Source: an uncultured Thermoleophilia bacterium (GTDB taxonomy: Bacteria; Actinomycetota; Thermoleophilia; UBA2241). From it: a DNA stretch of 64,000 nt. Numbering within the stretch: the stretch's first letter is position 1; each line of letters starts with the position of its first letter. The position numbers and the translations under genes were made by a program. The stretch lies in contig CAVPCT010000004.1 in assembly GCA_963702475.1 (NCBI GenBank), positions 1 through 64,000 on the forward strand, written 5' to 3'. Positions 58-62,994 of the stretch are shown here, piece after piece. A model generated the notes under the pieces. The model was not told the DNA's origin. It did not search any database and was given only the letters and a program-made list of their open reading frames with translations.

Positions 58-1451
58 TCAGGCGCCCGCGGTCCGTTCCTTGAACCGCTCCACGCAGTTG
101 ATGGGCACGTCGAGCACGCGCGCGATGTTGAACTTGGCCTCGATCTGGTTGGCCTGCCAGGGCTGGCTGATGGCGTAGCTGTGGACGCGGCCGAAGCCGT
201 GCTCGTTGCGCACGTCGGTCATCGCGACCGGGTCCGAGAGGTCGAAGGGCGTCACGCCGAGCTTGTCGGCGACGTACTGCTTGGCCTGCTTGAGGCGCAT
301 GCCCCGAGTCATCTGCATACGGGCAACCAGGTCTCCGCCTGCCCGGATACCGCCGATGCTCGCCGCCTGCGCATGGGCGTTGTGCATGCCGTGCGGGTCG
401 CCCGAGCCGACCTACAAGCCGTCCACGTGCAGCAGCTCCACGAACGACTTGGCCGCCCGGCAGGTGGCGTCGGAGGGCAGGTGCACGAACATCGGCACGC
501 CGCCCACGCCCATGCCGGCGTTGGGGTGCACGGGGATCGTCGCCACGTCCATGCAGGGCTTGATGAGGGCGATGGCGCGGGCCATGTTCCAGGCCAGGCT
601 CTTGCCGGTGTTGATGTTCACGACGGGGCCGAACACGGTGGCGCCGGCCTTCTGTGCGAGCAGCAGCTGGTCCTTGGGCCAGAGCCCGCGAGGCGCTTGC
701 CGCCCCACTCGAGCTGGCCGTGCATGCCGAGCACGAACTCGCCGGCCATGCCGAGCTGGACGCCCATGTCCGGGTACTTCTCGCGGATGATCTTCGTGGC
801 GCGCAGCGCCGCCAGGAACTCGGGGTCGCCGGAGGCGCCGGTGGTGTCCCAGTCGATCGCGTCGGCGCCGGCCTCCCACTGCGAGTCGGCGAGGTTGACC
901 ATGTCGACGACGGCCATCTCGACGGCCTCTTCGGCGGCCGCGCGCGCCTCCGGGATCTTGCCCAGCGGCAGCAGCTCGTTCCAGTTCTCGCAGGGCCCGT
1001 CGGGCTTCGAGTAGAGGCCCAGGTTGGGCATCACGCCGTACTGCAGGGGCGCGATGGTGCAGAGCTGGGCGTCGTGCATGTACTGGGCCTCGTAGGCGAG
1101 GATCGTGCGCACGACCTTGAGCGAGTAGTCGCCGACGCAGAGCTCCAGCAGGTCGGCGCCCATCCACTGCTCGTAGCTCTGCAGGTCCTGGATGCGCGTT
1201 GCGTGCGTCTTCATGCCGGTGCCGTCGCAGCTGAGGACGATCTCCTCGCCCACGTCCACGCCGATGAAGCGCAGCGGCGAGGCGTAGATCTCCAGCAGGT
1301 GGGCCAGCTCGTCCTCCGTGAGCGGCTCGACCTTGGCGCGCTTCACGGCCGCGGCGACGCCGGCCTCGAGGTCGGCGCGGATCTCGCTGCGCGTCAGGCG
1401 CGTGAAGGTGCCGTCGCCCATGCGGGTGGGCACCCGTTGTTCCGTCGTCAT
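58..1451 (-). CDS. mtbB: Dimethylamine:corrinoid methyltransferase MtbB, pyrrolysine-containing (in-frame TAG 412-414; one probable 1-nt sequencing deletion near 686)
   Basis: Three ORF pieces join into ~464 aa: MTTEQRVPTRMGDG...GMAGEFVLGMHG...; GLWPKDQ...GPVVNINT..SLAWNMARA..PVHPNAGMGVGGVPM...HVDGL-TAG-VGSGDPHGMHNAH..GGIRAGGDLVARMQ. This matches MtbB family motifs including the VDGx-O-xGxGDP Pyl context. RBS GGGAGG lies upstream of ATG 1451. Confidence 0.9.
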
Positions 1452-1495
1452 ACACTCCCTCCCGTGAACGCGGCCGCCGCGGATGGACGGCCGGG

Positions 1496-1550
1496 CTAAT
1501 CAACCGGTCAATTAGTCGCCACTACACACCGCGGCCTCGCGCCGTGTCAA
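1496..1550 (-). promoter_or_regulatory. Putative mtbB promoter (TTGACA at 1550-1545) with downstream palindromic operator CTAATCAACCGGTCAATTAG (1496-1515)
   Basis: Exact TTGACA on the minus strand and TGTAGT 18 nt downstream. The 20-bp near-palindrome recurs at 28199 and 57995. Confidence 0.6.
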
Positions 1551-1593
1551 GCGCCATCGTCGGCAGTCGATGCTCCTGCCGCGCACCGCCAGC

Positions 1594-2136
1594 TCACTTG
1601 GCTTCGTCAGTCCGCGCCGGCGCCGGGTTCGTCGAGCCCCTCGAGCGGCCCACGTCCTCGCCCTCCCACTCGAAGTTGGTCGTGTCGGTCCGCAGGATGT
1701 GCCAGGTATCCGTATAGGCGATGCCTTCGATCGCGTCGAGGTCCTCGTTGAGGAACCGGTAGAGCGCCTCGTTGTCGGGCAGATGCACCTCGATGAGGAT
1801 GTCGAACGAGCCGGTGGTGTATCCCACGTAGGCGACGTGCTCCATCGCCGCAAGTGCCGCCCCGACTCCAGTGCCGTACCCGCGATTCACGCGGATGCCG
1901 ACCATGGCGTCGACGGGCAGGCCGATGGCCGCGGGGTTCACCCCGGTCCACGGGAGGATCGCGCCCTGCCTGATCAGACGGTCGACGCGGTTACGCACCG
2001 TGGGCTCGGACACGCCGACGACGCGGGCGATGCTCGCGTACGAACGGCGCGCGTTGGGACGGAGGAGCTTGAGGATCCGGCGGTCGAGGTCGTCCATCTC
2101 CACGGTGCCGAACGGCGCCTGCCCCCACCTGACCAT
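1594..2136 (-). CDS. Lrp/AsnC family transcriptional regulator
   Basis: MDDLDRRILKLL..NARRSYASIARVVGVSEPTVRNRVDRL HTH plus C-terminal TTGSFDILIEV ligand domain. GGAGGT RBS before ATG 2136 (alternative ATG 2097). Confidence 0.9.
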   Translation of the reverse strand: MVRWGQAPFGTVEMDDLDRRILKLLRPNARRSYASIARVVGVSEPTVRNRVDRLIRQGAILPWTGVNPAAIGLPVDAMVGIRVNRGYGTGVGAALAAMEHVAYVGYTTGSFDILIEVHLPDNEALYRFLNEDLDAIEGIAYTDTWHILRTDTTNFEWEGEDVGRSRGSTNPAPARTDEAK

Positions 2137-2365
2137 CCGCACCTCCCTCGGCGTCGCTTCGTACTTGTTGTCGTCGCATCGGCCATACGCTTGGCGGATA
2201 ATACGACGGTTCAGAACGCAGTATCGCAGATTACCTTTGCGAAACAACAGTGTAGTGACGAAACCACCTTGCGAACAGCAGAACGAACGAGTAGAGTGCC
2301 CGCGGCGCCGGCGCAGAGGGTCCGGACCGGCGCCGGTGGTCAACGACGAGCCGCGGGAGTCAGTC

Positions 2366-3814
2366 ATGAGAGCGCACACCACCTGGCTGAGCCAAGCCGA
2401 GAAGGACGCCATCGTCGCCCAGGCCCTGGACCTGCTCGCGACGGTCGGCATGAGGTTCACGGAGTCGTCCGTGCTGCCGCTGCTCGCCGAGCGCGGAGCG
2501 CAGGTCGACGCCACGGGGCTCGTGCACTTCCCGCGCGAGCTCGTGGAGTGGGCGGCCGGCCAGTGCCCCCGACGGGTCGTCATGGCCGGCCTCACCGAGA
2601 CGGACGACGTGGTGCTGGACGAGGGCGAGCCCTTCCACTTCGCCCCCAGCGGCTGCGTCGCCAAGACGCTCGACTACCGCACCGGAGAGCGCCGCGCCAG
2701 CACGCTGCAGGACGTGCGCGACTGCACGGCGCTCAACGACGAGCTCCCCGAGCTGGACATCATGTGGACCCAGGTCAGCGCGTCGGACGTGCCGCTCGAG
2801 CAGCGTGAGCTCACCGAGTACTTCACGCTGCTCACCGAGACTCGCAAGCACGTCACCTTCGTCGACTGCCCGACAGAGGTCGACGCGGTGGTGCGCCTCT
2901 GCGAGGTCCTGGCGGGCGACCTGGAGCGCTTTCGCGCCCGCCCGCGCATCTCCACCGTGGTCACGGCGGCGTCGCCGCTGCAGGTCGACGGCGGCATCCT
3001 CGACGTGCATGTCGCCCTGGCCGGGCACGGCGTACCCGTGAAGGTCTACTCGATGACCGTCGCCGGCGCCACGTCGCCGGTCACGCTGGCCGGCACCGTC
3101 GTGCAAGGCTTGGCCGAGTTCCTCGGCATCGCCACGGCGCTGCAGGTCGCGGCGCCGGGCGCCCGCCTCATCTTCTGCTTCGGGTCTGGCGTCCTCGACA
3201 TGCGCCAGACCACCTTCTCGCAGGGCTGCGTGGAGAGCGCGCTCATGGCGGCCATGGCCACCGAGGTCGGCCACCACCTGGGCGTGCCGACGCTCAACCC
3301 CGGCATGTCGACCGACGCGCGTCACGTGCACCTGCAGGGCGGCTACGAGAAGGCGATGAAGGCCGCCACCGTGTGCGCCGCGAACCCCGACATCGTCACC
3401 GGCTGGGGGCTGCTGGACTCGCACAACACCATGTCGCTGCCGCAGTCGGTGATCGACAACGAGCTGGGCGGCATGCTGCGTCGTCTCCACCGGCCCGTCG
3501 AGGTCTCCGAGGCAACGCTGGGAGGCGCCGCCATCGCGACCGCAGGTCCGGGCGGCGGCTTCCTCGGCCAGAAGGACACGGCGAGGCGCATCCGCGCCGG
3601 CGAGCACTACCTGCCGACGCTGTCGAGCCGGCTCTCCTTCGACAAGTGGGTCGAGCGGGGCGCAAATGAGTACGACGACGCGTGCGCGCGTGTGGAGGCG
3701 CTGCTCGCCGCACACGCGCTGAAAGAACCCTACCTGGACGGCGCCACGCTCGACGAGCTGGCGGCGGTCTGCCGGGTGGATGAGGACATCGTGCGGCGGG
3801 CGCGGCGCGCCTGA
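2366..3814 (+). CDS. Trimethylamine methyltransferase (MttB) superfamily protein, non-Pyl (Ser at Pyl-equivalent site)
   Basis: ASPLQ, AGATSPVTLAG, G..DMR, PGMSTDAR..GGYEK, GPGGGFL motifs. Start at ATG 2366 within ORF 1871..3814. Confidence 0.88.
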   Translation: MRAHTTWLSQAEKDAIVAQALDLLATVGMRFTESSVLPLLAERGAQVDATGLVHFPRELVEWAAGQCPRRVVMAGLTETDDVVLDEGEPFHFAPSGCVAKTLDYRTGERRASTLQDVRDCTALNDELPELDIMWTQVSASDVPLEQRELTEYFTLLTETRKHVTFVDCPTEVDAVVRLCEVLAGDLERFRARPRISTVVTAASPLQVDGGILDVHVALAGHGVPVKVYSMTVAGATSPVTLAGTVVQGLAEFLGIATALQVAAPGARLIFCFGSGVLDMRQTTFSQGCVESALMAAMATEVGHHLGVPTLNPGMSTDARHVHLQGGYEKAMKAATVCAANPDIVTGWGLLDSHNTMSLPQSVIDNELGGMLRRLHRPVEVSEATLGGAAIATAGPGGGFLGQKDTARRIRAGEHYLPTLSSRLSFDKWVERGANEYDDACARVEALLAAHALKEPYLDGATLDELAAVCRVDEDIVRRARRA

Positions 3815-3863
3815 AGGCAACGACCGGGCGCGGCTGCCGTCGCCCGTCATGGAGGAGGAAGAG

Positions 3864-4784
3864 ATGACACCCAGGATCGGCTACATAGGGCTCGGCGCCC
3901 TCGGCAGACATCTCGCCGGCAGTCTGCTCAAGGCCGGCTTCCCGCTGACCGTGTACGACATCGACAGGACGTGCGCCATCGACCTCGAGAAGAACGGGGC
4001 GGTCTGCGCCGACTCGATCGCCGAGACGGCCGAAGCCTCGGACACCGTCATCACGTGCCTGCCGTCCCCCGAGGCGGTCGCCCGGGTCATGGAGGGCGAG
4101 GACGGCGTGTTCGAGTCCCTGACCCCGGGCGGCACCTGGATCGAGATGAGCACCAACGACGCCCACGAGATCCAGCGCCTCGCGGCGCTCGGCGCGGAGC
4201 GCGGCATCGAGACGCTGGAGTCGCCCGTCACCGGAGGTGTGCACCGCGCCGCCGCAGGCATGATCACCGTGCTCGTCGGCGGCAAGCCGGAGGTGTACGA
4301 GAAGTACAAGCCGGCGTTCGACGCCATGGGCGGCAGGGTGTTCTACATCGGCGAGCTCGGCAAGGCATCGGTGATCAAGGTCATCACCAACATGCTGGCG
4401 TTCATCCACCTGGTGGCCGACGGCGAGGCGCTCATGCTCGCCAAGCAGGGCGGCATCGACCTGGGGCTGGCCTGGGAGGTCATCAAGGCGAGCTCCGGCA
4501 ACAGCTTCGTGCACGAGACCGAGGGCCAGCTGATCCTCAACGGCAGCTACAACATCAACTTCACCATGGACCTGGCCCGCAAGGACCTGCACTTCGCGCA
4601 CATGATGGGGCGCGAGTGGGGCGTGCCGCTGGACCTCGCGAGCATCACCGAACAGACCTTCGTGCGCGGCCGCGCCACCTACGGCGGCGACGCGCAATCG
4701 ACCATGATCGTCAAGCTGCTCGAGGATGCCGTGGGCACCGACCTTCGCGCCCCCGGCTTCCCCGACGAGCTCGAGCCGGAATGA
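3864..4784 (+). CDS. NAD(P)-dependent oxidoreductase, 3-hydroxyisobutyrate dehydrogenase / beta-hydroxyacid dehydrogenase family
   Basis: IGYIGLGALG Rossmann motif, ESPVTGG, catalytic KVITN, KDL. Strong RBS GGAGGAGG. Confidence 0.88.
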   Translation: MTPRIGYIGLGALGRHLAGSLLKAGFPLTVYDIDRTCAIDLEKNGAVCADSIAETAEASDTVITCLPSPEAVARVMEGEDGVFESLTPGGTWIEMSTNDAHEIQRLAALGAERGIETLESPVTGGVHRAAAGMITVLVGGKPEVYEKYKPAFDAMGGRVFYIGELGKASVIKVITNMLAFIHLVADGEALMLAKQGGIDLGLAWEVIKASSGNSFVHETEGQLILNGSYNINFTMDLARKDLHFAHMMGREWGVPLDLASITEQTFVRGRATYGGDAQSTMIVKLLEDAVGTDLRAPGFPDELEPE

Positions 4785-4855
4785 CGGGTGTCCGGAGCAG
4801 GCAGCGCAAGATTCCATCGGTGCGCCCGCTGACAGCACGATGTTCTGTCGACGGC

Positions 4856-4884
4856 TTGACCGCGTGAACTTGTGAGCGAATACT
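4856..4884 (+). promoter_or_regulatory. Putative sigma70-type promoter of the ygc-like operon (TTGACC-N17-AATACT)
   Basis: Hexamers and 17-nt spacing are visible in the intergenic region. A similar AATACT -10 occurs at 10614. Confidence 0.35.
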
Positions 4885-4944
4885 CAGGCGCGGCGCGAGG
4901 CCGGAGGGGCTGACGCGCGGAGCACACACGGAGTGGAGTGGAGC

Positions 4945-5722
4945 ATGGAGATCAGCGACTTCTCGATGGACTTCTTCTTCCTTAAGGGGAAGAACGCCAT
5001 CGTCACCGGCGGCAACACCGGACTCGGCCAGGCGTTCTCGGTGGCGCTGGCCACGGCCGGCGCGAACCTCTTCGTGCCGAGCATCATGGACGACGACGGC
5101 ACCACCGGCCCGCTCGTGGCGGAACGCGGCGGCCGCTACGAGTTCATGAAGGCCGACATCACGCAGCCCGGCGTCCCCGCCGAGATCGTCGCCGCCTGCG
5201 TCGATCGGCTCGGCTCCCTGGACATCCTCGTGAACAGCGCCGGCATCTGCCCGATGGCGCCGGTCCTCGAGTTCGGGCGCGAGCAGTGGGACGCCACCGT
5301 GGCCGTGAACCTCACGGCCGCCTTCGAGATGGGCTACGAGGCCGCCAAGACCATGATCCCGCAGCGCTCGGGCAAGATCATCAACATCTGCTCGATGTTC
5401 TCGTACCTCGGCGGCCGCTGGTCGTCGGCGTACTCCGCGACCAAGCATGGCATCGCCGGGTTCACCAAGGCCTACTGCGACGAGCTCGCCGAGCACGGCA
5501 TCCAGGTCAACGGCATCGCCCCCGGCTACTACGCCACGGAGATCACGGCCGCGACGCGCAGCGACCCGGAGCGCAACAAGCACGTGCTCGACCACATCCC
5601 GGCGGCGCGCTGGGGGGACGTGGCCGATCTCATGGGCGCCACCGTGTTCCTCGCGAGCAGGGCGTCAGACTACGTCAACGGCGCACGTCCTGGCCGTCGA
5701 CGGCGGCTACCTCGTCCGCTAG
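4945..5722 (+). CDS. ygcW: Short-chain dehydrogenase, YgcW/KduD-like (1-nt insertion near 5683)
   Basis: FSMDFF.LKGKNAIVTGGNTGLG, YSATK, GIQVNGIAPGY. The C-terminus HVLAVDGGYLVR is in the +1 frame. Closely resembles E. coli YgcW as recalled. Confidence 0.85.
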
Positions 5723-5738
5723 ACGGGCCGGCGACACG

Positions 5739-7170
5739 ATGGGCAAGTACCTCATCGGCATCGACGGCGGCACGCAGAGCTCCAAGGTCGTCATCTACGA
5801 CCTCGAGGGCAACGTCGTCTGCGAGGGCAAGCGGAACCTCCTCCCGATGGAGCACCCGCAGCCGGGCTACGCCGTCCACCCCGACGACGACCTGTGGGAG
5901 TCCATCGTCGCCGCGAGCCGCGAGGCGATGATGAAGTTCCCCGGCGACCACGCCGACATCATCGGCGTCGGCCTCTGCACGATCCGCTGCTGCAAGGCCT
6001 TCCTCAAGGCCGACGGCACGCTGCTCGAGCCGGTCATGAGCTGGATGGACACGCGCGCCTACCAGCCCTGGCTCCCCGACGACCCGGAGCTCGCCTGGGC
6101 CACCACGTCGTCCGGCTACATGACGCACCGGTTCACCGGCGAGTTCCGCGACAGCGCCGCCAACAACATCATCCTGCAGTGGCCCATCGACACCGACACG
6201 TGGCAGTGGGACCCGGCGCTGTTCGCCGCAGTTCAACATGCGCCCGGAGCTGCTCTTCGAGCTGCAGATGCCGGGCGACATCGCCGGCTACGTCACCGCC
6301 GACGCGGCGGCGGCGACCGGCATCCCGGAGGGCCTGCCGGTCGTGACCACCGCCAACGACAAGGCGGTCGAGGCGCTCGGCTCGGGCTCGCTCGACGAAC
6401 GCACGGCCCTCATCTCGCTGGGCACGTACATCGCCTCCATGGTCCACGGCCACGAGAACCGCCAGGACGCCGTGGACTTCTGGACCAACTTCGCCTGCGT
6501 GCCGCACCGCTACCTCTACGAGAGCGGCGGCGTGCGCCGCGGCATGTGGACGCTCAGCTGGTTCCTCGACCTGCTGGGGCCGGAGTTCGCCGCCGTCCGC
6601 CGCCGCGCAGGACATCTCGCGCGAGGAGTACCTCGAGCGCGAGGCCGAGCTCGTCCCGGCCGGGAGCTGCGGCCTGATGACGGTGCTGGACTGGCTGGCG
6701 CCCACCGAAAAGCCCTTCCGCAAGGGCGAGATCCTCGGCTTCGACGCGCGCCACACGAGGGCGCACGTCTACCGGTCGATCCTCGAGGCGATCGCGCTGA
6801 CGATGAAGGAGAACGTCGACGCCATGTGCTGCCGAGCTCGGCATCGACCTGCGCGAGATCGTCGTCTCCGGCGGCGGCGCTAACAGCCCGCTCTTCATGC
6901 AGATCTTCGCCGACGTGTTCGGCGTGCCCGCGTCACGCAACCTCGGCGCCAGCGGCGCAAGCCTGGGCTCGGCCATCTGCGCCGCCGTCGCCACCGGCGT
7001 GTACCCCGACTTCGCGACCGCCGCGGCGGCCATGAAGCGGGGCCGCGAGTCGTTCGACCCCGACGAGGAAGACCACCACGTCTACCGAGCTCATGAACAA
7101 GAACGTCTACCGCGCCATCCACGACGCCACGGACCCGATCCTCGAGCAGTCCTTCTCGATCTTCCACTGA
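5739..7170 (+). CDS. ygcE: FGGY-family sugar kinase, YgcE-like (four +1 frameshifts near 6226, 6596, 6830, 7086)
   Basis: MGKYLIGIDGGTQSSKVVIYDLEGNVVCEG, HPDDDLW, IRCC, DKAVEALG, GLMTVLDW, GGGANS.LFMQIFADVF. The pieces fall in successive frames. Confidence 0.82.
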
Positions 7171-7203
7171 CACGAGACCGCACGAACGCAAAGGAACACC
7201 GAC

Positions 7204-8685
7204 ATGTCACTGAGCAGAGAAGCCATCGTCGAGGGCCTGCAGCGCATCGTGGGCCAGGACAACGTGGTCACCGACCAGCGCGTGCTCGTCGAGAGCAGCG
7301 TGGACAACTTCCGCAAGCTGCAGAACATCTTCGACGTGCACACGATGCCGGTGCCGGCCGCCGTGGCCATGCCGGCGTCCGCCGAGGAGGTCGCCGAGCT
7401 CCTCACGTGGGCGAACGCCAACGGCGTGAACATCATCCCGCGCACCGGCGGCACCGCGACCGAGGGCGGTCTCGAGAGCGCCGTCCCCGACTCCGTCATC
7501 GTCGACGGCGGGCGCATGGACCGCATCATCGAGGTCGACGCCTACGACATGCAGGCCACCGCGCAGTGTGGTGTGCCGCTGCAGGAGCTCGAAGACCGCG
7601 CCCGCGAGCTGGGGCTCACCACCGGCCACTCGCCCCAGTCCAAGCCGGTCGCCCACATGGGCGGCCTCGTGGCCACGCGCAGCATCGGCCAGTTCTCGAC
7701 GCTGTACGGCGGCATCGAGGACATGGTGGTCGGGCTCGAGGCGGTCTTCCCCGACGGGGAGGTCTGCCGTATCAAGAACGTTCCGCGCCGCGCCGCCGGC
7801 CCGGACATCCGTCACATCGTGATCGGCAACGAAGGCGCACTTTGCTTCATCACCGAGGTGACCGTCAAGCTGTTCCCGTACTTCCCCGAGAACAACACGT
7901 TCCTGGGGTGGACGCTCAAGGACATGCAGACCGGTTTCGAGGTGCTGCGCGAGGTCATGGCAAACGGGTACAAGCCGTCGGTGGCGCGGGTGTACGACCC
8001 CGGCGACGCCGGCATCCACTTCAGCCACTTCGCCGCGCCGGACGACTGCGTGCTGCTGTTCATGGCCGAAGGCCCCGCCGGCATCGCCAAGGCCACGGCC
8101 GCCGGCATCCAGGAGATCGTCGACCGTCACCCCGAGTGCACGCAGGTCGACAGCCGCTACATCGAGACATGGTTCAACGACCTCTGCTGGGACGCGAGCA
8201 AGATCACGGCCGAGGACGAGCGCATCCGCCAGACGCGCAACGTGAACCGCACCACGGAGATCTCCGCGGACTGGAGCAGCATCAACGAGATCTACCAGGC
8301 GGCGAAGGCACGCATCATCGAGGAGATCCCCGACATCACCATGATGGGCGGCCACTCCTCGCACAGCTACATCAACGGCACCAACATGTACTTCAACTAC
8401 TTCTTCAACGTGGTCGGAGTCGGCCCGGAGGAGGAGACCGAGAAGTACTACCTGCCCATCATCGGCATCATCTGCGAGGAGACGCTCAAGCGCGGCGGCT
8501 CCATCGTGCACCACCACGGCATGGGCAAGGCGCGGGCGCCGTGGGTGAAGGACGAGTACGGTTCGTCGTACTCCATGCTGGAGACGCTCAAGAAGGCGTT
8601 CGACCCCAACGGGATCATGAACGTTGGGACGATCTTCCCGCTGCGAGAAGTGACGGGGCGAGAGGCCGGGGCGCTCTGCGCATAG
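7204..8685 (+). CDS. ygcU: FAD-binding oxidoreductase (VAO/alkyl-DHAP synthase-like), YgcU-like
   Basis: PRTGGTATEGG, TTGHSPQSKP, ATRSIGQFSTLYG, KNVPRRAAGPDIRH, GNEG, HHHGMG, FDPNGIMN. Confidence 0.9.
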   Translation: MSLSREAIVEGLQRIVGQDNVVTDQRVLVESSVDNFRKLQNIFDVHTMPVPAAVAMPASAEEVAELLTWANANGVNIIPRTGGTATEGGLESAVPDSVIVDGGRMDRIIEVDAYDMQATAQCGVPLQELEDRARELGLTTGHSPQSKPVAHMGGLVATRSIGQFSTLYGGIEDMVVGLEAVFPDGEVCRIKNVPRRAAGPDIRHIVIGNEGALCFITEVTVKLFPYFPENNTFLGWTLKDMQTGFEVLREVMANGYKPSVARVYDPGDAGIHFSHFAAPDDCVLLFMAEGPAGIAKATAAGIQEIVDRHPECTQVDSRYIETWFNDLCWDASKITAEDERIRQTRNVNRTTEISADWSSINEIYQAAKARIIEEIPDITMMGGHSSHSYINGTNMYFNYFFNVVGVGPEEETEKYYLPIIGIICEETLKRGGSIVHHHGMGKARAPWVKDEYGSSYSMLETLKKAFDPNGIMNVGTIFPLREVTGREAGALCA

Positions 8686-9506
8686 CCGTCGGCTTCAAGG
8701 TCACGCCTGACTACGAGGCGCTGCGGCCGGCTGACTGGACGCGGGCGGGCGGGTCAGAAGGCGCAGGCCCCGAGGTGCGGTACGTGCGCCGCGTGCTGGG
8801 CCCGTTCGACGAGGCCGCGCTGGAGCTCGCGCTGCGCCTACGCGACGCGCGCGCCGGGCGCGGCCTACGGACGCAGCTCGCCGCCTTCAGCATCGCCGGC
8901 CGCGAGGCGGACCCGTTCCTTGTCACCCTTCAGGCGCTCGGCTACGACCGCGCCTGCCGGGTCGACGCCGCCGGGCTCGACTTCGCGCAGGCGGCGACCG
9001 CACGCCTGGTCGCCGCCTGCGCGGAGCGCTCGGGGAGCGACGTGCTGCTTCTCGGCGCGCAGAGCGGCCCCGGCGACAGCGGCGTGGTGCCGTTCCTGGC
9101 GGCCGAGACGCTCGGACGGCCGTGTCTCACCCAGGTCACGGAGATCGACGCAGCGGACGACATGCGGCTGCGGGTGACGTGGACGGCAGGGCGCAGCCGC
9201 TACCGCGCCGGCGTCGCCCCGCCCTGCGTCCTGGGCGTCGGCAACGCGCTCGTCTCGATGCTGCGGGTGCCGACGCTCAGGCAACGTCTGGCGGTGCGCG
9301 AACGGACGACCGAGGTGCTGTCGCCCGCCGAGCTGGGCGTCGACCTGGCCGAGGCCCTCGCGCGCGAGCCCTCCGCGCTGCTCGACCTCGCCGTCGTCGA
9401 TCGTCGAAGAGCCGGCCGGGTCGTCGAGGGCGCGAGTCCGCAGGACAAGGCGCGCGCCCTGTACGAGACCGAGCTGCGCCCTCGACTGGAACAGCTGCAA
9501 CGATGA
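8676..9506 (+). CDS. ygcR: Electron transfer flavoprotein beta subunit, YgcR/FixA-like (probable CTG start)
   Basis: LRIAVGFKVTPD...GPFDEAALELAL...LLGAQSGPGDSGVVPFLAAE.LG.PCLTQV. This is the C-terminal part of ORF 6897..9506. Confidence 0.8.
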   Translation: MRIAVGFKVTPDYEALRPADWTRAGGSEGAGPEVRYVRRVLGPFDEAALELALRLRDARAGRGLRTQLAAFSIAGREADPFLVTLQALGYDRACRVDAAGLDFAQAATARLVAACAERSGSDVLLLGAQSGPGDSGVVPFLAAETLGRPCLTQVTEIDAADDMRLRVTWTAGRSRYRAGVAPPCVLGVGNALVSMLRVPTLRQRLAVRERTTEVLSPAELGVDLAEALAREPSALLDLAVVDRRRAGRVVEGASPQDKARALYETELRPRLEQLQR

Positions 9507-10508
9507 GCGGCGAGGGCACGTCGCGATCCGACAGTCAGCTGCGCGTGGCCGCCGTCCTCGACGGGGCGAGCCCCAGCCCTGACCGGAACGCGCGAGCACT
9601 CGCAGGCTTCATGCAAGACGGCCTTTCGGCCGGCGACGCGCGCATGGTCACCATCGTCTTCTGCGCGACCGACGCGGACCAGGAGCGTCTCGTCCAGCTC
9701 GCGCCCACGGAAACCGTCCGGCCGGTCCACGTCCCGCTCCACCGGCCGGACCTGCGAGCCGCCGCCCTGAGCGCCTTCGCTGGCCGAGGGCGGCGCCGAC
9801 CTCTTCGTGTTCCCGGGCGGACCGTCCGGCACCGAGCAGGCGGCGCGCCTGGCCGCCCGGGCCGGGGGCAGCGTGGCGACCGCGGTCCGCGAGGCGGCGG
9901 ACGGCGCCCAGGGCCTGGTCTGCAGCCGCCACGTGCATTCCGGTCACCTGGCCGGCCGCCTGGCGTTGCGCCGGCGGCCCTGGTGCCTGACCGTCGACGC
10001 GAGCTGGGAGGACGCCGGCGTCCAGCCACCCGCCACCCACCGCGTGCACACCGGCATAGAAGCGCCCGCCGATGGCGCCGAACCCCCGTTCACCGACGTC
10101 GAGGTCATAGGGGAGGCCACGGCGAGCGACCTTGAGGCGGCGCGCTTTCTCGTGATCGCCGGCCGCGGCGCAGGCCGCGATGGCGTGGAGCGCATGGCTG
10201 CGGCAGCGGCCCGCATGGGCGCCGCCTTCGGCGTGACGCGGCCGGTCGCGATGAACGGCTGGGCGCCCATGGACAGGCTCGTCGGCGTCTCGGGCGCGCG
10301 CACGGCACCGGCCATCTGCATCACGGCCGGTGCCCACGGCGCGCCGGCGCTGCTCTGGGGCATCGAACGCGCCGGCTTCATCGCAGGCGTCGATCTCGAC
10401 GAGCGCGCGCCGATCGCCGCCGAGGCAGACGCCGTCGTGCGCGACGACGGCGTCTTCGTCATCGAGGCTCTCGCGGACCTCATCGACGCGGCGGACCACT
10501 CGCCCTGA
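9503..10508 (+). CDS. ygcQ: Electron transfer flavoprotein alpha subunit, YgcQ/FixB-like (+1 frameshift near 9780)
   Basis: ATGA overlap with the beta subunit. LEAARFLVIAGRG, GVTRPVAMNGW, VGVSG, GAHGAPA..WGI, D..APIA.EAD motifs. Confidence 0.8.
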
Positions 10509-10589
10509 CCAGCGGCGTCACGCGCCCCACTCTGCAGACAATCCGCGCGCCATCACGCCATCCAGACGGAATATCATTCGCCATGTGAA

Positions 10590-10619
10590 TTGACGAACAG
10601 AACATCGGACTGAAATACT
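10590..10619 (+). promoter_or_regulatory. Putative promoter TTGACG-N18-AATACT upstream of the Lrp-panB operon
   Basis: AT-richer intergenic region containing these hexamers. Confidence 0.35.
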
Positions 10620-10653
10620 CGCGTCCGGACCTTCACCTCACCGAGGGGGACGC

Positions 10654-11118
10654 GTGGACGCTCTGGATCGCGAAGTACTGCTGGCGCTGCAGGCCGACGG
10701 GCGCATGTCCAATCTGTCGCTCGCGCGCTCCCTGGACCTCTCGCCGTCGGCCATGCTGGGCCGCGTCCGCAGGCTGGAGAAGGCCGGCGCGATCCGCGGC
10801 TACCGCGCCATCATCGATCCGACCGCGCTTGGGATCACCGTACGCGCGCTGGTGGTCGCTCGCCTGCGCGAGCACAGCGAGCGGTCCATCCAGGCCTTCG
10901 AGGAGGGCATCCGCAACGTGCCCGGGGTGCGCGCCTGCTACCACGTCACCGGGCAGTTCGACATGGTGGTCGAGCTCGCACTGCGCGACCTCGACCACCT
11001 GGGCCAGCTCATCCGCGTCGACATCGCCCGCATCCCCGGGGTCATGAACCTCGAGACCATGCTCATCCTGGCCGAGTCCGTCGAAGACGAAGGCTGGCCG
11101 GTCGTCCCGCAGACGTAA
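10654..11118 (+). CDS. Lrp/AsnC family transcriptional regulator
   Basis: MDALDREVLLALQADGRMSNLSLARSLDLSPSAMLGRVRRLEKAGAIRGY; CYHVTGQFD. Confidence 0.92.
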   Translation: MDALDREVLLALQADGRMSNLSLARSLDLSPSAMLGRVRRLEKAGAIRGYRAIIDPTALGITVRALVVARLREHSERSIQAFEEGIRNVPGVRACYHVTGQFDMVVELALRDLDHLGQLIRVDIARIPGVMNLETMLILAESVEDEGWPVVPQT

Positions 11119-11131
11119 GCAAGGAGGCACC

Positions 11132-11989: not shown

Positions 11990-11997
11990 GCACCGTC

Positions 11998-13259: not shown

Positions 13260-13278
13260 CCCCCAAGGAGACACCACG

Positions 13279-14733: not shown

Positions 14734-14794
14734 CGCAGGCCGCCGTCACACCGCCGATCACTGACCCGCGGGCGCCGAGCGCCAGGAGGACGAC

Positions 14795-47647: not shown

Positions 47648-49826
<2,179 letters not shown>

Positions 49827-49830
<4 letters not shown>

Positions 49831-51392: not shown

Positions 51393-51578
51393 ACGCGGCT
51401 CCCATCCGTGCTTCCGGACCGTGACGGCCAGATCAGGCGCAGCAGGACTTCCTCGCCGCGCCCGGCTATCCTCTCCGACGCCACGGTCGAAGCCCAAGCC
51501 TCGGCTGCAGCGACCCATCCCCTGGGCCGGGCTCGCCCGCAGGCAGCTGCAGACGACAGGCGAGCCCGGCCCGGTCGC

Positions 51579-53048
51579 TTACCGGCTCACCCCCAGCTCC
51601 CGCTCCGCCTCGGCGACGATGGCCGCCATCTCGGCGGCCGCACCCTCGGGCAGGGGCGTGGGCTCGTGGCTCTCGAGGATGCGCATCGCCTCGGCGCGGG
51701 CCCGCTCGTAGAGGCTCGTCGAACCGGCTGCCGTCCACTCCTCGCGGACGCGGCGGTCGATGAGCCGCGGCTGGCTCTGCTCGCGCATGTGGCGGTAGGT
51801 GTCCTCGTGGGCGAGGAAGTCGCTGAAGGGGCCGACGTCGTGGATCACGTCGACCGAGAGGGTCTCGTCGTTCACGGGGACGCCGTTCACGCAGAACTTG
51901 ATGAGGCGCGCGAACTCGTTGTCCATGACGAGCTGCGCGTAGTCGATGGTCATGCCCGACTCCAGCATCCCGGCCCCGTAGATCAGGTTGGCACCTGCCA
52001 ACGCTGGGAGGAGCCCGGTGAGGGTCTTCTCGTGGCCGGACTGGGCGTCGACCAGCTTGGAGTCGCCCTACTGCCCGGCGACCCAGCTGGGCAGCAGGTA
52101 GTAGCGCGCCAGACAGGCCACGGCGGAGTTGATGAGGGCGCACTCGGGGGAGCCCACGGAGGCGGAGGCGAAGCGGAGGTCGATGGCCGTGGTCGACGAC
52201 CCGTACACCATCGGGGCGCCCTTGCGCACGAGCTGCGCGAGCGTGATGCTCGACAGCACCTCGGCGTTATGGGTGACCACCGTCCCCGCCAGGCTGGCCG
52301 GCGAGGACCCGCCCGCCATGGCCATGGAGACCACGTTGACCGGCACGCCCGAGCGTGCTCCGTCCATGACGATCTCGCACATGTCGCGGATCAGCTTGAG
52401 CGGGCTCACCGGACATGTCACGAACGACAGGATCGGATGCTCGCGCAGCCGCTCCGCGCCGCCGACGATGGCGGCCGCCATCTCGCGCATGCGGCCCGAC
52501 AGATAGCCGTTCATCGATCCGACGAAGGCGTGCTTGGAGCAGTTCGTCAGCATGGCCTCGGCGTTGTGCAGCGGCTGTGTCTCCGCCGGCACGTCGTGCG
52601 CCCCCAGCGGCCGCTCGATGACGTCGATCTCGGGCAGGGCGTCGATGATGCGCGAGCAGTCGCCGACGTCCTTCTTCGTCGTCGGCCGCAGTTCGCCGGT
52701 GTAGGGGTCGATGACGCTGATGCCCTCGCCGAAGTTGGTGAAGCCGACGCGGCCGTCCTCGAGGACGACGTCGTGCTTGGGGTCGCGGCCGTACAGGACG
52801 AGGCGCGAGGGCGTCGAGCGGATCGCGTCCTCGACCACGTGCCCGGGGATCTTGACGATGCCGTCGGCCTCGACCCTGCAGCCGGCGCCGTGGAAGAGCT
52901 CCTGGGCCTCCTCGTCCTCCACGAACACGCCGGTGCGCTCGAGCACATCCAGTGTCGCCATGTGGATGTCGGTGAGCTCGTCCGGCGTGAACACCTCCAG
53001 GTGCAGGCCTCCGCTGCGGCGGTGGCCCGCCTGCAGGTTCCGTCTCAT
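51579..53048 (-). CDS. mttB: Trimethylamine:corrinoid methyltransferase MttB, pyrrolysine-containing (in-frame TAG 52068-52070, codon 327; 489 aa)
   Basis: ORFs 52068..53048 and 51579..52001 are in frame: SWVAGQ-TAG-GDSK..GHEKT. The central region (VPVNVVSMAMAGGSSP..AGTVVTHNAEVLS, YGSSTT) is the most canonical of the three copies. Confidence 0.92.
51589..52181 (-). repeat. 593-bp inverted repeat, copy 2
   Basis: Reverse complement of 38498..39090. Confidence 0.85.
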
Positions 53049-53546: not shown

Positions 53547-54215
53547 TCAGGCGGAGGGCGAGGGGTCCGTGGTCGCGTCCTCACGACCGCGGACCCAGCT
53601 CGTGAGAGCGCCGGCGAAGACCTCGTAAGCTGCGTCGACCGGGAATCTCTCCGCGCTGATCACGTTCTGGACGGCGAGACCGTCGACCACAGCGATGATC
53701 AGTTGGGCGAACCCGCGCGCCTGGTGCTCGTCCAGGCTCTCGAGGCTCTCGGCGAACAGCCTCAGGTACAGATCGACCGCCCACTCGTACATGTTCTCGA
53801 TGCGCTCGCTGTGGCGCTCGTCCCGCAGGATCGCCGGCAGCAGCTCCAGGAACGCCAGATAGGCCTGCGTGTTCTCGCTCATCTCGCGCTTGGCCTGCAC
53901 GAAGGCAGCCATCCGCTCGTCGACCGAGAGTCCTTCCGCCGGCGGAAGGTCGAGCAGCGGAACGAGCAGAGCGATGTTGTCGTGCACCCAGCTGTCCACG
54001 ACGAGCTCCATGAGACCCGCCTTGTTGCGGAAGTAGTACCGCACCGCGGTCTTGTGCAGACCGCACTCCTCGGCGATGTTCTCCAGGCTGAGATAGCCGT
54101 AGCCCTTCTCGATCAGAAGCCGCCGCGTGATCTCCACGATGCGTCGCGCCGTCGGCGGCAGCTCGGCGAGTGGGTCCGGCACGGGATCACGCGGTGCGGG
54201 CGAGTCGACGGCCAC
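53547..54215 (-). CDS. TetR/AcrR family transcriptional regulator (paralog of 27413)
   Basis: RRIVEITRRLLIEKGYGYLSLENIAEECGLHKTAVRYYFRNKAGL. GTG start after GAGGAGGAG. Confidence 0.88.
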   Translation of the reverse strand: MAVDSPAPRDPVPDPLAELPPTARRIVEITRRLLIEKGYGYLSLENIAEECGLHKTAVRYYFRNKAGLMELVVDSWVHDNIALLVPLLDLPPAEGLSVDERMAAFVQAKREMSENTQAYLAFLELLPAILRDERHSERIENMYEWAVDLYLRLFAESLESLDEHQARGFAQLIIAVVDGLAVQNVISAERFPVDAAYEVFAGALTSWVRGREDATTDPSPSA

Positions 54216-54356
54216 ATCTCCTCCTCGTTGAGCGGGTGGTGCACTGGAGACACCCCTGGCGCCGGCAGTGGCCGGCGCTTGCCCGGCAGGCGCAGCATAC
54301 CTCAAGCACCATCCGAATGGTGCGTTGGGTCCGTCGGCCCGCCGCGAGAATCCGCG

Positions 54357-54536: not shown

Positions 54537-55674
54537 ATGAAGGCCGTCGTGACCACCGGCAACGGCGGCTTCGACCAGCTCGACTACCGTGACGTGCCGA
54601 TACCTGTGCCGGCGTCGGGCGAGGTCCTGCTCCAGGTCCTCGCGGCGGGAGTGAACAACACGGAGATCAACACGCGGCTGGGCTGGTACTCCTCCTCAGT
54701 GACGGACAGCACCGAGAGCTTCGCCGAGACCCAGGCCGAAGCGGCCGAGGCCAAGGCCGACGGCGGCTGGGACCAGCCGACTCCGTTCCCCTTCATCCAG
54801 GGCACCGACTGCTGTGGCCGTATCGTCGAAGTCGGGCCGGGTGGAGACGAGAGCGTCCTTGGTAGCCGGGTCCTCGGTACGAGCCTGCATGCGACCGCTC
54901 GGGTACGGCTCGCTCGAGAACATCTGGATGGCCTCGGACTTCGACGGCGCGTTCGCGCAGTACGTGAAGGTCCCCGCCTCGGAGGTCTTCACCATCGAGT
55001 CCGATTGGAGCGACGTCGAGCTGGCAACGATCCCGTGCTCCTACGGCACAGCCGAGACCATGCTGCATCGCGCCGAGGTCGGCGAGGGCGACCGCGTCCT
55101 CGTCACCGGCGCGTCCGGTGGGGTGGGCTCGGCTGCGGTGCAGCTCGCCAAGCGGCGCGGCGCCCACGTCATCGCCGAGGACATCTACCACTTCAGGCAC
55201 GTGCGAGACCTGCCAGAGCCCGACGCGTCGCGCGTGCGCAGCGAGTGGCTGGAGCAGCTGCACGCCGCAGGCGCGGACCGCGTGGTGGACGAAGGCGACG
55301 ACATCGTCGCCGTGCTGGGGCACCAGTCCGTGGACGTCGTGGTGGACAACGTGGGGGGGCCGGCGTTCGCGAGCCTCGTAGAGGCGCTGGCCAGAGGCGG
55401 ACGGTACGCTTCATCCGGCGCGATCGCGGGTCCCATCGTGTCGTTCGACAAGCGCTCCTTCTACCTGAAGGACCTCACGTTCTTCGGCATCACGGCGTGG
55501 GACGAACCCGTGTTCCCGAACCTCGTGTCGTACATAGAGCGTCACGAGATCCGGCCGCTGGTGGCCAGGACCTACCCATTGGCGAAGATCGCCGACGCCC
55601 AGCGCGAGTTCCTCGAGAAGAAGCACCTGGGGAAGTTCGTCCTCGTTCCGCCTCAGGCAGAGCCCAGGGGCTGA
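54537..55674 (+). CDS. Medium-chain dehydrogenase/reductase (alcohol dehydrogenase/quinone or enoyl reductase-like) (+1 frameshift near 54875)
   Basis: MKAVV..GGFDQL, AAGVNNTE, FPFIQGTD, DGAFAQY, VLVTGASGGVG, VDNVGG, SGAIAGP, GKFVL. Confidence 0.82.
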
Positions 55675-59889: not shown

Positions 59890-59945
59890 CTTCTTCTCGG
59901 GTCCGGCCCTGCCGGGGTGTCGGTCTTGGCGCTCGGCCACCAAGC

Positions 59946-61394
59946 TCACACCCGTCCCAGAGCCTCAGCGTCGGCCACGATCCGTGACATGCCTGTCTCC
60001 ACATCGGCGGGCAGGGGCTCGGGGCGATGCTCTCTGAGCACACGCCGCGCCTCCTCAGACGCTCGCGCGTAGACGTCCGTCGCGCCGATGCTCACCCAAT
60101 CGTCGCGCACGCGGCGGTCGAGCAGAAGCGGCCGGCTCATCTCTCTCATATGGCGCAGTGTCGCGCCCAGGCTCAGGAAGTCGCCGAACGGACCGACGGC
60201 CTGGATGTCGGCCACGGCCAGCGCATCGTCGTCGGTGCGAACGCCGCCGAGGCAGTGGGAGATCATCCGCGCGAACTCCGCGTCCAGCATCAACTGCGCG
60301 AAATCGAAGGTGAGGCCAGCTTCGATCATGCCCATGCCGTAGATGACGTCGGCGCCGCTGAGAGCCGCCAGGAGAGCCGAAAGCGTCTTCTCGTGCCCGG
60401 TCTGCGCGTCCGACACCTTGCCGTCGCTGAGTCCGCCGGCGACCATGCTGGGCAGTCCGTGCCGCCGGGCAAGCTGTGCAACGGCGGCGCTGACGAGTGC
60501 GAGCTCAGGCGAACCCCCTGTCGCGGACCCGAACCGCAGGTCAAGTGCCGTGGAGGCGCTCCCGTACACCACAGGAGTGCCCGGCCCAGTGAGCTGCGCG
60601 AGCGTGACGCCGGCCAGCACCTCCGCCTCGTGCGTGACCAGGGTCCCGGCGAGGGTCACCGGGGTGGAGCCTCCGGCCATGGCCATTGAGACCACGTTGA
60701 CGCCGACACCATGGCGTGCGCCCGCCATGATGACCTCACAGCAGTCGGCGAGCAGCTTGAGCGGGCTCACCGGGCACACCAGGAACGACAGGAGTGAGCC
60801 TTCGCGTACGGCCTCCGGTGAGCCCAAGATGGCCCTCTGGAGTTCCACGATGCGCTCGGCAACGTAGCCGTTCTGCGCACCCAGGAACGCGTGCTTCGTG
60901 GTGTTGCGCAGAATGGCATCGGCGTTGTGCAGCGCCGCCACGTGCTGGGGCACGTCGTGGGGCACAAGAGCCCGCACGCACACGGCGGCCTCGTCGAGCG
61001 CGTCCACTGCACGCGCGGCCGTTCCGACGTCCGCCTTCGTGGATGGGCGGCGATCACCCGAGAACGGGTCCACAAGGCAGATGCCTTCGCCGAAGTTGGT
61101 GAACGTGACCGCGCCGTTCCCGAAGACGGCGTCGTGCGAACGCTCCCGACCATGGGCCACCACGCGCGAGGGAGCCGTCTGCAGCGCCTCGTCCACGACC
61201 GTCGCAGGGATGCGCACGATCCGCGTGCCTCGGTCCACGCGGCAGCCACGAGATGCGAAGATCTCGACAGCGTCCCAGGACTCCACGAACACGCCGGTGG
61301 CCTCGAGCACGTCGAGCGCAGCGGCCTGGATGCGACCGATGTCATCGCTGCCCAGCAGCTCGAAGAACGGACGGCGACCGCCCTCGCCACTCAT
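59946..61394 (-). CDS. MttB family methyltransferase of the Pyl-like clade with Leu at the Pyl site (paralog of 42524)
   Basis: FTNFGEG, HDVPQHVAALHNADA, CPVSPLKL, PSMVAGG-L-SDGKVSDAQTGHEKT. Confidence 0.9.
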   Translation of the reverse strand: MSGEGGRRPFFELLGSDDIGRIQAAALDVLEATGVFVESWDAVEIFASRGCRVDRGTRIVRIPATVVDEALQTAPSRVVAHGRERSHDAVFGNGAVTFTNFGEGICLVDPFSGDRRPSTKADVGTAARAVDALDEAAVCVRALVPHDVPQHVAALHNADAILRNTTKHAFLGAQNGYVAERIVELQRAILGSPEAVREGSLLSFLVCPVSPLKLLADCCEVIMAGARHGVGVNVVSMAMAGGSTPVTLAGTLVTHEAEVLAGVTLAQLTGPGTPVVYGSASTALDLRFGSATGGSPELALVSAAVAQLARRHGLPSMVAGGLSDGKVSDAQTGHEKTLSALLAALSGADVIYGMGMIEAGLTFDFAQLMLDAEFARMISHCLGGVRTDDDALAVADIQAVGPFGDFLSLGATLRHMREMSRPLLLDRRVRDDWVSIGATDVYARASEEARRVLREHRPEPLPADVETGMSRIVADAEALGRV

Positions 61395-61503
61395 CACGAC
61401 GCGCGTTCGCCGCGCGGCCGGCCACCTCGCGATGACGAGGGACCATGCAGGCCGACCCGCACTATCCGCCGCAGCATAGCCGGTTCCGGTCTCCAGCTGC
61501 TGC

Positions 61504-62994
61504 TCACACCGCGCTTGCGGACAGAACGTCCGCGCACCCCAAGTCGCGTTCCGCCTTGCTGATGACGGCGCGCATCTCCTCGAGGGCGCCCTCGGGCAGC
61601 GGCGTTGGTACATGCGTATCGAGGATGCGCCTGGCGTGCTCGAGAGCACGATCGGCGACGTCTCTCGAGCCGTCGGCGACCCAGTCCTCGCGCACGCGGC
61701 GGTCCATCAGCGCCGGCCGGCTCTGCACACGCATGTGGCGCAGGGTGTCCTCGTGGCTGAGGAAATCGCTGAACGGGCCAACCTCGTGGATGACATCCAG
61801 GGCCATGGTCGCGTCGTTGACGGGCACGCCACCGACGCAGAACTTGACCAGGTCGGCGAACTCCGCGTCGATCACGAGCTGCGCGTAGTCGATGGTCATG
61901 GCGGTCTCGAGCATCCCCGCACCATAGATCAGGTTGGCGCCTGCCAACGCCGTCAACATGCCGGTGAGGGTCTTCTCGTGGCCGGACTGCTCATCCGTCA
62001 GCTTGGAGTCCGCCTACAACCCGGCGACCCAGCTCGGCAATCCGTAGTGCCGGGCGAGGCAGGCGATCGAAGCGTTGATGAGGGCGCACTCGGGACTGCC
62101 CACCGTCGCTGTTGCGGACCGGAGGTCCAGAGCCGTCGTCGAACTGCCGTAGATGAGAGAGGCTCCCCTGTGCGTCAACTGCGCCAGGGTGAGGGCCGAG
62201 AGCACCTCCGCGTTGTGCATGACGACCGCGCCCGCGAGGTTCACCGGCGACGAGCCCCCGGCCAGCGCCATCGAGACGACCGACGTCGGCACCCCCTCTC
62301 GTGCTCCCTCGATGAGAACGTCACACACGTCGCGCGGAAGCTTGAGCGGGCTTATCGGACAGACCACGTACGTGAGGATCGGACGCTCTCGCAGGCTCTC
62401 GGCGCCGCCCGCTATCGCTGCGGCCATCTCGCGCATGCGCGTGGCCAGATAGCCCGTGATCGGCCCGATGACGGCGTGCTTCGAGCAGTTGGCGAAGATG
62501 GCCTCCGCGTTGTGCAGGGGGCCCACCTGCTCGGGGACGTCGTGAGCACCGACGGGCCGCAGGATCGCGTCGATCTGAGGCAGCGCGTCGATGACCCGCG
62601 AGCAGTCGCCCACATCCCTCTTCATCGTCAACCGCCGCGCGCCGGTCTCGGGATCATTGACGAAGACGCCCTCACCGAAGTTGAGGAAGTTGACGCGGCC
62701 GTCCTCGAGCACCACGTCGTGCTTCGGGTCCCGGCCGTACATGATGAACTGTGACGGCGTCGAGCGTATGGCATCCTCGACCACGCAGCCGGGGATCTTC
62801 ACCACGCCGTCCGCCTCGACCCTGGCGCCCGCGCCGGCGAGGATCTCCTGGGCCTCCTCGGACTCGACGAAGACGCCCGTGCGCTCGAGCACCTCGAGTG
62901 TCCCGAGGTGGATATCCGCAAGCTCATCGGGCGTGAACACATCCAGACGCAGACCCCCGCTCGCGCGATGTCCCGCGTGAAGGCTGCGCTTCAC
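61504..62994 (-). CDS. mttB: Trimethylamine:corrinoid methyltransferase MttB, pyrrolysine-containing (in-frame TAG 62014-62016, codon 327; 496 aa)
   Basis: [47 protein letters not shown]. GTG start at 62994 with AAGGAGG RBS. Confidence 0.92.

Follow-up and report, generated by a model that had tools for sequence, protein, structure and literature searches.

The window examined here is the first 64,000 nt of contig C4 (C4:1-64000) in the metagenome-assembled genome (MAG) of an uncultured Thermoleophilia bacterium, which comprises 4.31 Mb in nine contigs at ~70% GC, with a completeness of 93.8% and a contamination of 6.5%. A Pfam search that read across stop codons found 12 matches to the MttB family (PF06253) in the window, three of which contain an in-frame TAG. 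These three mttB genes, hereafter M1 (37631-39130, + strand), M2 (51579-53048, - strand) and M3 (61504-62994, - strand, GTG start), together with an mtbB gene near the beginning of the window, are candidate genes for trimethylamine (TMA) and dimethylamine (DMA) methyltransferases with pyrrolysine (Pyl) in the active site. In agreement with the initial annotation, translation with TAG read as O revealed exactly one in-frame TAG in each of M1 (38609-38611), M2 (52068-52070) and M3 (62014-62016), always at codon 327. The same annotation had placed them in an island of MttB paralogues, which is a fair term because 25 of the 51 full-length MttB matches of the genome lie on C4, all inside its first 235 kb.

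End-to-end alignment of M1 with the TMA methyltransferase MttB of Methanosarcina barkeri in the PDB (1e-109, 370 bits) placed codon 327 on residue 334, which is X (Pyl) in 7xcl and K in the 7xcm variant; thus the TAG occupies the catalytic Pyl position, as had been proposed. M3 matched 7xcm with 397 bits. On the NCBIfam model TIGR02369 (trimeth_pyl), M1, M2 and M3 scored 677, 730 and 674 bits over their full length, above the curated equivalog cut-off of 525 bits, while two ordinary MttB paralogues without TAG reached only 266-343 bits. Pyl334, Gly110, Tyr364 and Met249 are active-site residues of the M. barkeri enzyme, and the available text of PMC9842639 describes Gly110 and Tyr364 as invariant among Pyl-MttBs. 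The equivalents of these two residues are retained in M1, M2 and M3, and that of Met249 is kept in M2 and M3 and replaced by Ile in M1. In the 13 TAG-bearing full-length mttB genes of the genome, the Tyr364 column is always Tyr and the Gly110 column is Gly in eight, Ala in three and Asp in two. The likeness of M1-M3 to M. barkeri MttB (7XCL/7XCM/7XCN) therefore covers the full length, the Pyl residue and most of these active-site positions; in contrast, they have a bacterial host, carry Glu for Thr111, and are not adjacent to mttC but to genes of amino acid and propionyl-CoA catabolism.

The initial annotation had described three divergent Pyl-MttBs, which does not hold for all of them. M1 and M2 are 88% identical as proteins, and M3 is 70% identical to M1. 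The DNA of M1 and M2 is 100% identical over nt 900-1460, the last 560 nt (window positions 38531-39090 and 51619-52148), but only ~70% identical in the middle of the genes, and the identical 3′ tract points to gene conversion or recent recombination. The two genes are inverted relative to each other, 13 kb apart, and the gene order around them differs from that of two congeners, G134 and G403.

Across the genome, the TAG falls on the catalytic column in 13/13 of the TAG-bearing full-length mttB genes, which share 43-87% pairwise identity, and M3-like matches, nearly all with TAG, occur in 29 of 30 same-genus genomes. Because the same column is hit throughout the paralogues and these relatives, a chance origin of the TAG position is excluded. 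Nor is selection relaxed downstream of the TAG in mttB, since the ratio of nonsynonymous to synonymous substitution rates (dN/dS) of M1 or M2 versus M3 was 0.31 after the TAG and 0.27-0.28 before it. These genes can hardly be pseudogenes or sources of truncated products in which the conserved TAG is a relic. Several window genes, mtbB included, are indeed disrupted and TAG is an ordinary stop elsewhere, but such a relic would not be expected as a single TAG at the catalytic column of every paralogue and of dozens of orthologues in the congeners, under purifying selection that is equal beyond the TAG, in a genome with a complete pyl gene set.

The mtbB gene lies on the - strand in two frames. 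Its N-terminal part (684-1451, ATG at 1451) matches positions 4-267 of PF09505 and 7-269 of TIGR02368 (177 bits), and its C-terminal part (58-683, stop at 58-60) matches positions 262-462 of PF09505, with one TAG, and 265-465 of TIGR02368 (210 bits); the Pfam Dimeth_Pyl hits extend over 672-1430 and 76-690, the latter containing the TAG. Each piece stays below the TIGR02368 cut-off of 369.1 bits, which their sum of 387 bits would exceed. The in-frame TAG (412-414), a putative Pyl codon, lies in the motif VDGL*VGSGDP, in a column shared with seven intact paralogues; no MtbB structure was found in the PDB, and the site was set by this paralogue motif instead of a direct alignment to the archaeal Pyl residue. 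Three-frame translation and comparison with the paralogues at the DNA level located a 1-nt deletion at 683-690, where GGC-TCT-GGC stands in place of codons for G-(L/M)-W and all seven intact paralogues read RLAG(L/M)WP. Thus, the initial annotation was right about a TAG at the family-conserved site of mtbB, whereas its statement that coding sequence is intact on both sides fails, as the deletion splits the frame in this assembly.

At least five further window genes shift frame midway, namely those for an FGGY kinase (~5700-7080), a class-I/II aminotransferase (~12000-13280), a class-III aminotransferase (39206-40562), a methylmalonate-semialdehyde dehydrogenase (MMSDH)-like protein (40712-42125) and a zinc-dependent alcohol dehydrogenase (54600-55674). 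In G134 the halves are in frame, with offsets of 513 nt for the class-III aminotransferase and 1026 nt for the MMSDH-like dehydrogenase against 514 and 1027 nt in the window. When window positions 1-20000 were compared with contigs from public runs, a base was found inserted behind 683 in three contigs of run X3 and behind 684 in one contig each of X3 and X20, and X3 and X20 contigs drop one base at 6227 and 6830, where the kinase gene changes frame; these contigs may stem from related strains and are not proof of an assembly error. Indel errors probably affect this assembly about once every 10 kb. Such errors are the best explanation because frameshifts occur at about this density in unrelated genes and each is absent from relatives, and mtbB is probably intact in the organism, its split being an assembly indel. 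In the same comparison, low-depth contigs from two wastewater-labelled runs, X1 and X2, matched the window with 0-2 differences over 300-580 nt (e.g., 16726-17306 and 19517-20000); a strain that is the same as or near-identical to that of the window is present in these runs.

Searching the whole genome for pyl genes, we found the full set on contig C3, with all protein genes above their NCBIfam cut-offs: pylB (C3:637885-638913; 438 bits, cut-off 348), pylC (C3:638955-640109; 324 bits summed, cut-off 248), pylD (C3:640193-640975; 209 bits, cut-off 150) and pylSn (C3:642228-642485; 126 bits, cut-off 51) form a cluster with tRNA-Pyl(cta) (C3:641046-641118), and pylSc (C3:657647-658372, - strand; 314.6 bits, cut-off 178) lies ~15 kb from it, next to a TAG-containing mtbB gene. 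A genome lacking pyl genes would have refuted the initial annotation; that refutation fails here. The tRNA was identified by ARAGORN and has a 6-bp anticodon stem, which is a hallmark of tRNA-Pyl. ARAGORN also predicted a tRNA-Sec(tca) at C3:167171-167268, and the organism may use both selenocysteine and pyrrolysine. Selenocysteine in MttB itself was rejected: the TGA counted once within some MttB matches was a terminal or upstream stop in the two cases from this genome that were examined.

A chimeric bin, in which the pyl genes on C3 and the window on C4 came from different organisms, is very unlikely. The estimated contamination of 6.5% in this nine-contig MAG would permit it, but all contigs fall between 69.5 and 70.9% GC, TAG-mttB or TAG-mtbB genes occur on seven of the nine, C3 and C4 included, and PylSc is found together with the locus of the window in congeners whose contamination is 1-5%.

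We then asked how UAG is used elsewhere in the genome. Open reading frames (ORFs) of at least 150 codons were kept if their GC content varied by codon position as it does in genes; of these 2714 ORFs, 2241 are terminated by TGA, 391 by TAG and 82 by TAA. UAG is ambiguous, serving as both stop and sense codon, and has not been reassigned, because TAG ends ~14% of the ORFs. Three window genes have TAG as their ordinary stop (24499-24501, 42123-42125 and 43949-43951); two of them encode MttB paralogues whose ends coincide in the alignment with those of related proteins. All three share their reading frame with the following gene, and no second stop intervenes. Read-through by tRNA-Pyl would thus yield fusions of two MttBs, of the MMSDH-like protein with a cupin, and of a Leu-variant MttB with the beta subunit of propionyl-CoA carboxylase (PCC); there is no genome-wide excess of such arrangements, and they may be due to chance.

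Full reassignment of UAG to Pyl has recently been reported for some archaea. For this organism, a code in which UAG is no longer a stop is very improbable, even though there are as many as 21 intact TAG-containing methyltransferase genes, a very large set, and TAG accounts for 14% of stops compared with 27% in one Pyl-lacking congener. Besides the many ORFs that end in TAG, the TAG-ended paralogues stop at the same columns as TGA-ended ones, and the next in-frame stop is no nearer after TAG than after TGA: extensions of at least 60 codons follow 198/391 TAG, 1110/2241 TGA and 44/82 TAA stops, with no excess of backup stops. The congener in question, G014, has no PylSc match and uses TAG for 26-27%, TGA for 38-43% and TAA for 30-35% of stops, against 14-16% TAG in the genome of the window; for G014, the values come from 20 sampled stretches of 20 kb each, or 400 kb out of 1.66 Mb. 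Differences in GC content (65.6% versus 70%), genome size and TAA use confound the comparison, and depletion of TAG stops was not used as evidence.

A coding-like continuation follows 63 TAG-ended ORFs, and all except those for MttB, MtbB and MtmB look like adjoining in-frame genes. In one ORF resembling short-chain dehydrogenases/epimerases (C5:869788), the motif SSFAAVG*GQ includes an in-frame TAG and the sequence beyond it is coding-like; the TAG could reflect a nonsense mutation or an error, or the ORF could be another candidate Pyl gene.

The initial annotation had proposed that the organism decodes UAG as Pyl. Judged from the full pyl gene set and from selection that is not relaxed after the TAG, UAG in these genes is very probably read as Pyl, and we put the probability of genuine Pyl decoding by a genetic code expanded in this uncultured Thermoleophilia bacterium at about 0.88. 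Lysine would be converted to Pyl by PylB, PylC and PylD, PylSn and PylSc would act as a split synthetase that charges tRNA-Pyl(CUA), and the charged tRNA would compete with the release factor at UAG codons. Read-through of the one UAG in each of M1, M2, M3 and mtbB would then yield complete methyltransferases with an active-site Pyl, which would pass a methyl group from a tertiary (MttB) or secondary (MtbB) amine to a corrinoid protein whose gene lies in another part of the genome. The corrinoid would be kept reduced by RamA homologues, and the methyl group would enter C1 metabolism, for which acetyl-CoA synthase and MTHFR are present.

Several observations weigh against this interpretation. 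Read-through as Pyl is deduced at the sequence level, from the genes themselves, from where their TAG lies and how well it is conserved, from selection before and after it, and from the pyl set. As assembled, the frameshifted mtbB gives no full-length product. No corrinoid protein gene adjoins M1, M2 or M3, unlike in canonical mttBC operons, although mttC-like genes do follow other TAG-mttB genes of this genome. Furthermore, the pyl genes and the window lie on separate contigs of a MAG with the contamination given above, and a Pyl-charged tRNA would also cause unwanted read-through of the 391 ORFs that end in TAG. Finally, a PYLIS-like RNA structure was rejected: the 120-nt folds after the four TAGs of the window had z-scores of -1.40, -1.40, -1.53 and -0.17, which are not beyond those of shuffled sequences.

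The methyltransferase repertoire of the whole genome is large. MttB gave 75 matched pieces; 51 of them cover the model in a single frame, 13 with one TAG. One TAG is likewise present in 7/7 full-length MtbB matches and in one of the five MtmB matches, where it aligns with K202 in the PDB entry for M. barkeri MtmB, the site of Pyl202. The intact TAG-containing methyltransferase genes thus comprise 13 mttB, seven mtbB and one mtmB, in addition to broken copies. At 301-318 kb of contig C9, a canonical series of mtmB, mtbB and mttB is found, each followed by a corrinoid protein gene. A tblastn map located ~22 corrinoid protein genes genome-wide, and RamA-type matches were found at three loci (four pieces), along with pterin-binding proteins, MT2-like candidates of the URO-D family, an acetyl-CoA synthase subunit and MTHFR. 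Therefore, the parts for corrinoid-dependent demethylation into C1 metabolism are present, from which we infer such a route.

The substrates TMA and DMA are assigned to MttB and MtbB by family membership, and should be taken as predicted. A sequential order of reactions had been suggested, beginning with quaternary amines. The part from TMA via DMA to monomethylamine (MMA) fits, because a TAG-containing mtmB also exists, whereas the conversion of quaternary amines to TMA by non-Pyl MttBs is chemically loose: the characterised non-Pyl enzymes MtgB, MtcB and MtpB convert a betaine to its dimethyl compound, not to TMA. Four MtmB homologues of the genome have no TAG. One of them is located just past the end of the window (C4:64538-66659) beside a corrinoid protein gene; a non-Pyl MtmB homologue has been described as the tetramethylammonium/choline methyltransferase MtqB in the available text of PMC13044021 (2026).

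M1-M3 are embedded in a catabolic locus. Directly upstream of M1 lies a gene for a propionate/acetate-CoA ligase-like protein (35604-37520, + strand; Pfam AMP-binding; 724 bits on NF007815, below its cut-off of 955). Downstream of M1 on the + strand follow the class-III (omega) aminotransferase gene (39206-40562), which is frameshifted here and in frame in G134; the gene for a CoA-acylating MMSDH-like protein (40712-42125), also frameshifted and stopped by TAG, with TIGR01722 pieces of 296 and 125 bits; a cupin gene; an MttB gene with Leu (CTC) at the Pyl column (42533-43951), which ends in TAG and is near the Pyl clade; and genes for PCC beta and alpha, methylmalonyl-CoA mutase (MCM) and MeaB (44033-50867), identified by Pfam/NCBIfam. 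Scans of the window ORFs with the same databases identified a glyoxalase-family, methylmalonyl-CoA epimerase-like gene downstream of M2 (50901-51518, - strand) and a TetR regulator with a BetI-type C-terminal domain upstream of it (53547-54305, - strand). A second Leu-variant MttB (59946-61394, - strand; CTC at the Pyl column) adjoins M3. The two Leu variants are ~50% identical to the Pyl enzymes and much closer to the Pyl clade than the other non-Pyl paralogues. The second, the one of the two that was scanned, would be misnamed by automatic annotation because it passes the TIGR02369 cut-off with 611 bits in spite of having no TAG.

Genes of this locus are also present in G134 and G403 at 66-90% identity and in slightly different order. 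The orthologues of M1, M2 and M3 there are ~81% identical, each retains its TAG, and they are syntenic in G134 and/or G403. The mutase of the window was found in one of 12 sampled congeners, G134 and G403 being outside this sample. A foreign origin of the locus was rejected; it is accessory within the genus, because these two congeners hold the whole locus in synteny.

The setting of the locus raises the possibility that M1-M3 are real Pyl enzymes whose substrate is not TMA. Together with the Leu-variant MttB, they might demethylate an N-methylated amino compound such as a beta-amino acid betaine: the Leu variant would take the quaternary form and the Pyl-MttBs the tertiary, perhaps also the secondary form, and the freed primary amine would pass through the omega-aminotransferase, MMSDH and PCC/mutase so that the skeleton is burnt via propionyl-CoA. 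The order CoA ligase, Pyl-MttB, class-III aminotransferase, MMSDH-like protein, cupin, Pyl-MttB, Leu-MttB is conserved in three genomes, with PCC, MCM, MeaB, the epimerase-like gene and TetR beside it. The locus is without a corrinoid gene, while a separate canonical mtmBC/mtbBC/mttBC set exists on C9. Likewise, the breadth of identity among the 13 TAG-mttB genes suggests diversification, and three distinct orthogroups are kept across species. However, M1 and M3 match the M. barkeri TMA enzyme at least as well (370 and 397 bits) as the canonical copy on C9 does (366 bits), M1-M3 all exceed the cut-off of the TMA equivalog and keep Gly110, Tyr364 and Pyl, and gene neighbourhood alone is weak evidence. 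Pyl enzymes are not known to use any substrate besides MMA, DMA and TMA. We consider this alternative tentative and rather unlikely. If it were true, Pyl enzymes would act beyond these three amines, and the large radiation of TAG-mttB and TAG-mtbB genes in this family would reflect a diversification of substrate specificities.

TAG is absent from nine of the window's 12 MttB paralogues, which have Leu, Thr, Val, Cys or Ser at the Pyl column. In addition to the two Leu variants, these are PF06253 proteins encoded on the + strand at 2366-3814 (Ser), 13279-14733 (Thr), 16708-18300 (Val), 19412-20860 (Cys), 23053-24501 (Cys, with the ordinary TAG stop at 24499-24501), 24577-25980 (Val) and 26003-27391 (Cys). 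The Thr type is followed by the only corrinoid (B12-binding) protein gene of the window (14795-15445, + strand; PF02310 and PF02607). Two genes of the ornithine cyclodeaminase/mu-crystallin family (15608-16588 and 21848-22939, both - strand) lie among the non-Pyl MttBs. This family includes cyclic imino acid reductases, and these neighbours may hint at the substrates of the nearby MttBs. In lacking TAG, the nine paralogues resemble the non-Pyl MttB superfamily represented by the glycine betaine methyltransferase MtgB (PDB 2QNE/9YCE), but the two Leu types are much nearer to the Pyl clade.

Desulfitobacterium hafniense and Acetohalobium arabaticum are bacterial Pyl systems with split PylSn and PylSc. 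The system described here resembles theirs in its separate pylSn and pylSc, clustered pylBCD and pylT, an mtbB gene next to pylSc and the continued use of TAG as a stop. Unlike those systems, it belongs to Actinomycetota, has pylSc 15 kb from the pylBCD-pylT-pylSn cluster and contains many more Pyl genes. Both species are mentioned in the available parts of PMC1976440 and PMC5424206, the former citing D. hafniense with a single Pyl gene. Eight Pyl proteins are given there for the delta-1 symbiont of Olavius algarvensis (PMC1976440), and up to five copies of the TMA methyltransferase for marine Deltaproteobacteria in the available text of PMC8318568. These bacteria likewise combine several TAG-mttB and TAG-mtbB genes with tRNA-Sec and non-Pyl MttB paralogues, but they belong to another phylum and, as far as these excerpts tell, do not approach the 13 TAG-mttB, seven TAG-mtbB and one TAG-mtmB genes, plus broken copies, of the present genome.

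To place the system phylogenetically, we compared its PylSc with species-representative genomes and found 27 close relatives at 59-74% identity. According to NCBI lineage, 25 of them are Actinomycetota, including 20 Thermoleophilia, in line with the apparently actinobacterial nature of the genome noted initially; the next match is from a Peptococcaceae MAG at 53%. Across 401 genomes sampled from the class, PylSc was present in 73 of the 79 further members of the family, in 44 of 48 for the genus, and in 9 of 61 genomes of a second family; the other families sampled had none. TAG-mtbB genes were found in 12/12 sampled same-genus genomes, with 2-12 matches each, the full-length ones having one TAG. 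Because PylSc is so widespread within the family, the Pyl trait belongs to the lineage and not to a single genome. No PylSc match was obtained in two small same-genus genomes, G002 and G014 (1.7-1.8 Mb, 98% complete), which may represent a streamlined branch that lost Pyl.

One genus to be considered here is RBG-16-64-13, which we take to be a Thermoleophilia lineage in GTDB. It is among the active methylotrophs in PMC10805028 (2023), whose available text also reports Actinobacteriota MAGs from Stordalen Mire that express Pyl mttB and mtbB. Those MAGs share with the present genome the phylum and the same two amber-codon gene families. The report is a single sentence in which the genes are recognised by truncation; the main text, as available, gives no pyl genes, paralogue numbers or loci, and the supplementary tables may hold more. 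Within the literature collection that was searched for pyrrolysine and MttB in Actinobacteriota and Thermoleophilia, it was the only report found. Taken with the prevalence of PylSc in the family and of TAG-mtbB in the congeners, this excerpt indicates that the rarity claimed in the initial annotation was overstated. The trait has already been noted in print, and the present case is a well-documented further example with an unusually large Pyl gene set.

Work on bacterial Pyl has dealt with a small number of Firmicutes and Deltaproteobacteria. An entire family of uncultured Thermoleophilia with high GC content, found in sediments, soils and wastewater, can now be added as a carrier of the system, and at least 20 amber-containing methyltransferase genes are present in single genomes. 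The coexistence of UAG as a stop and as a sense codon in so many genes raises the question of how it is tolerated. Standard annotation breaks every such gene and misnames close non-Pyl paralogues. The set of paralogues and the conserved catabolic locus provide candidates for Pyl enzymes that may act on amines beyond TMA, DMA and MMA, and this family of Thermoleophilia is likely to compete with methylotrophic methanogens for methylamines.

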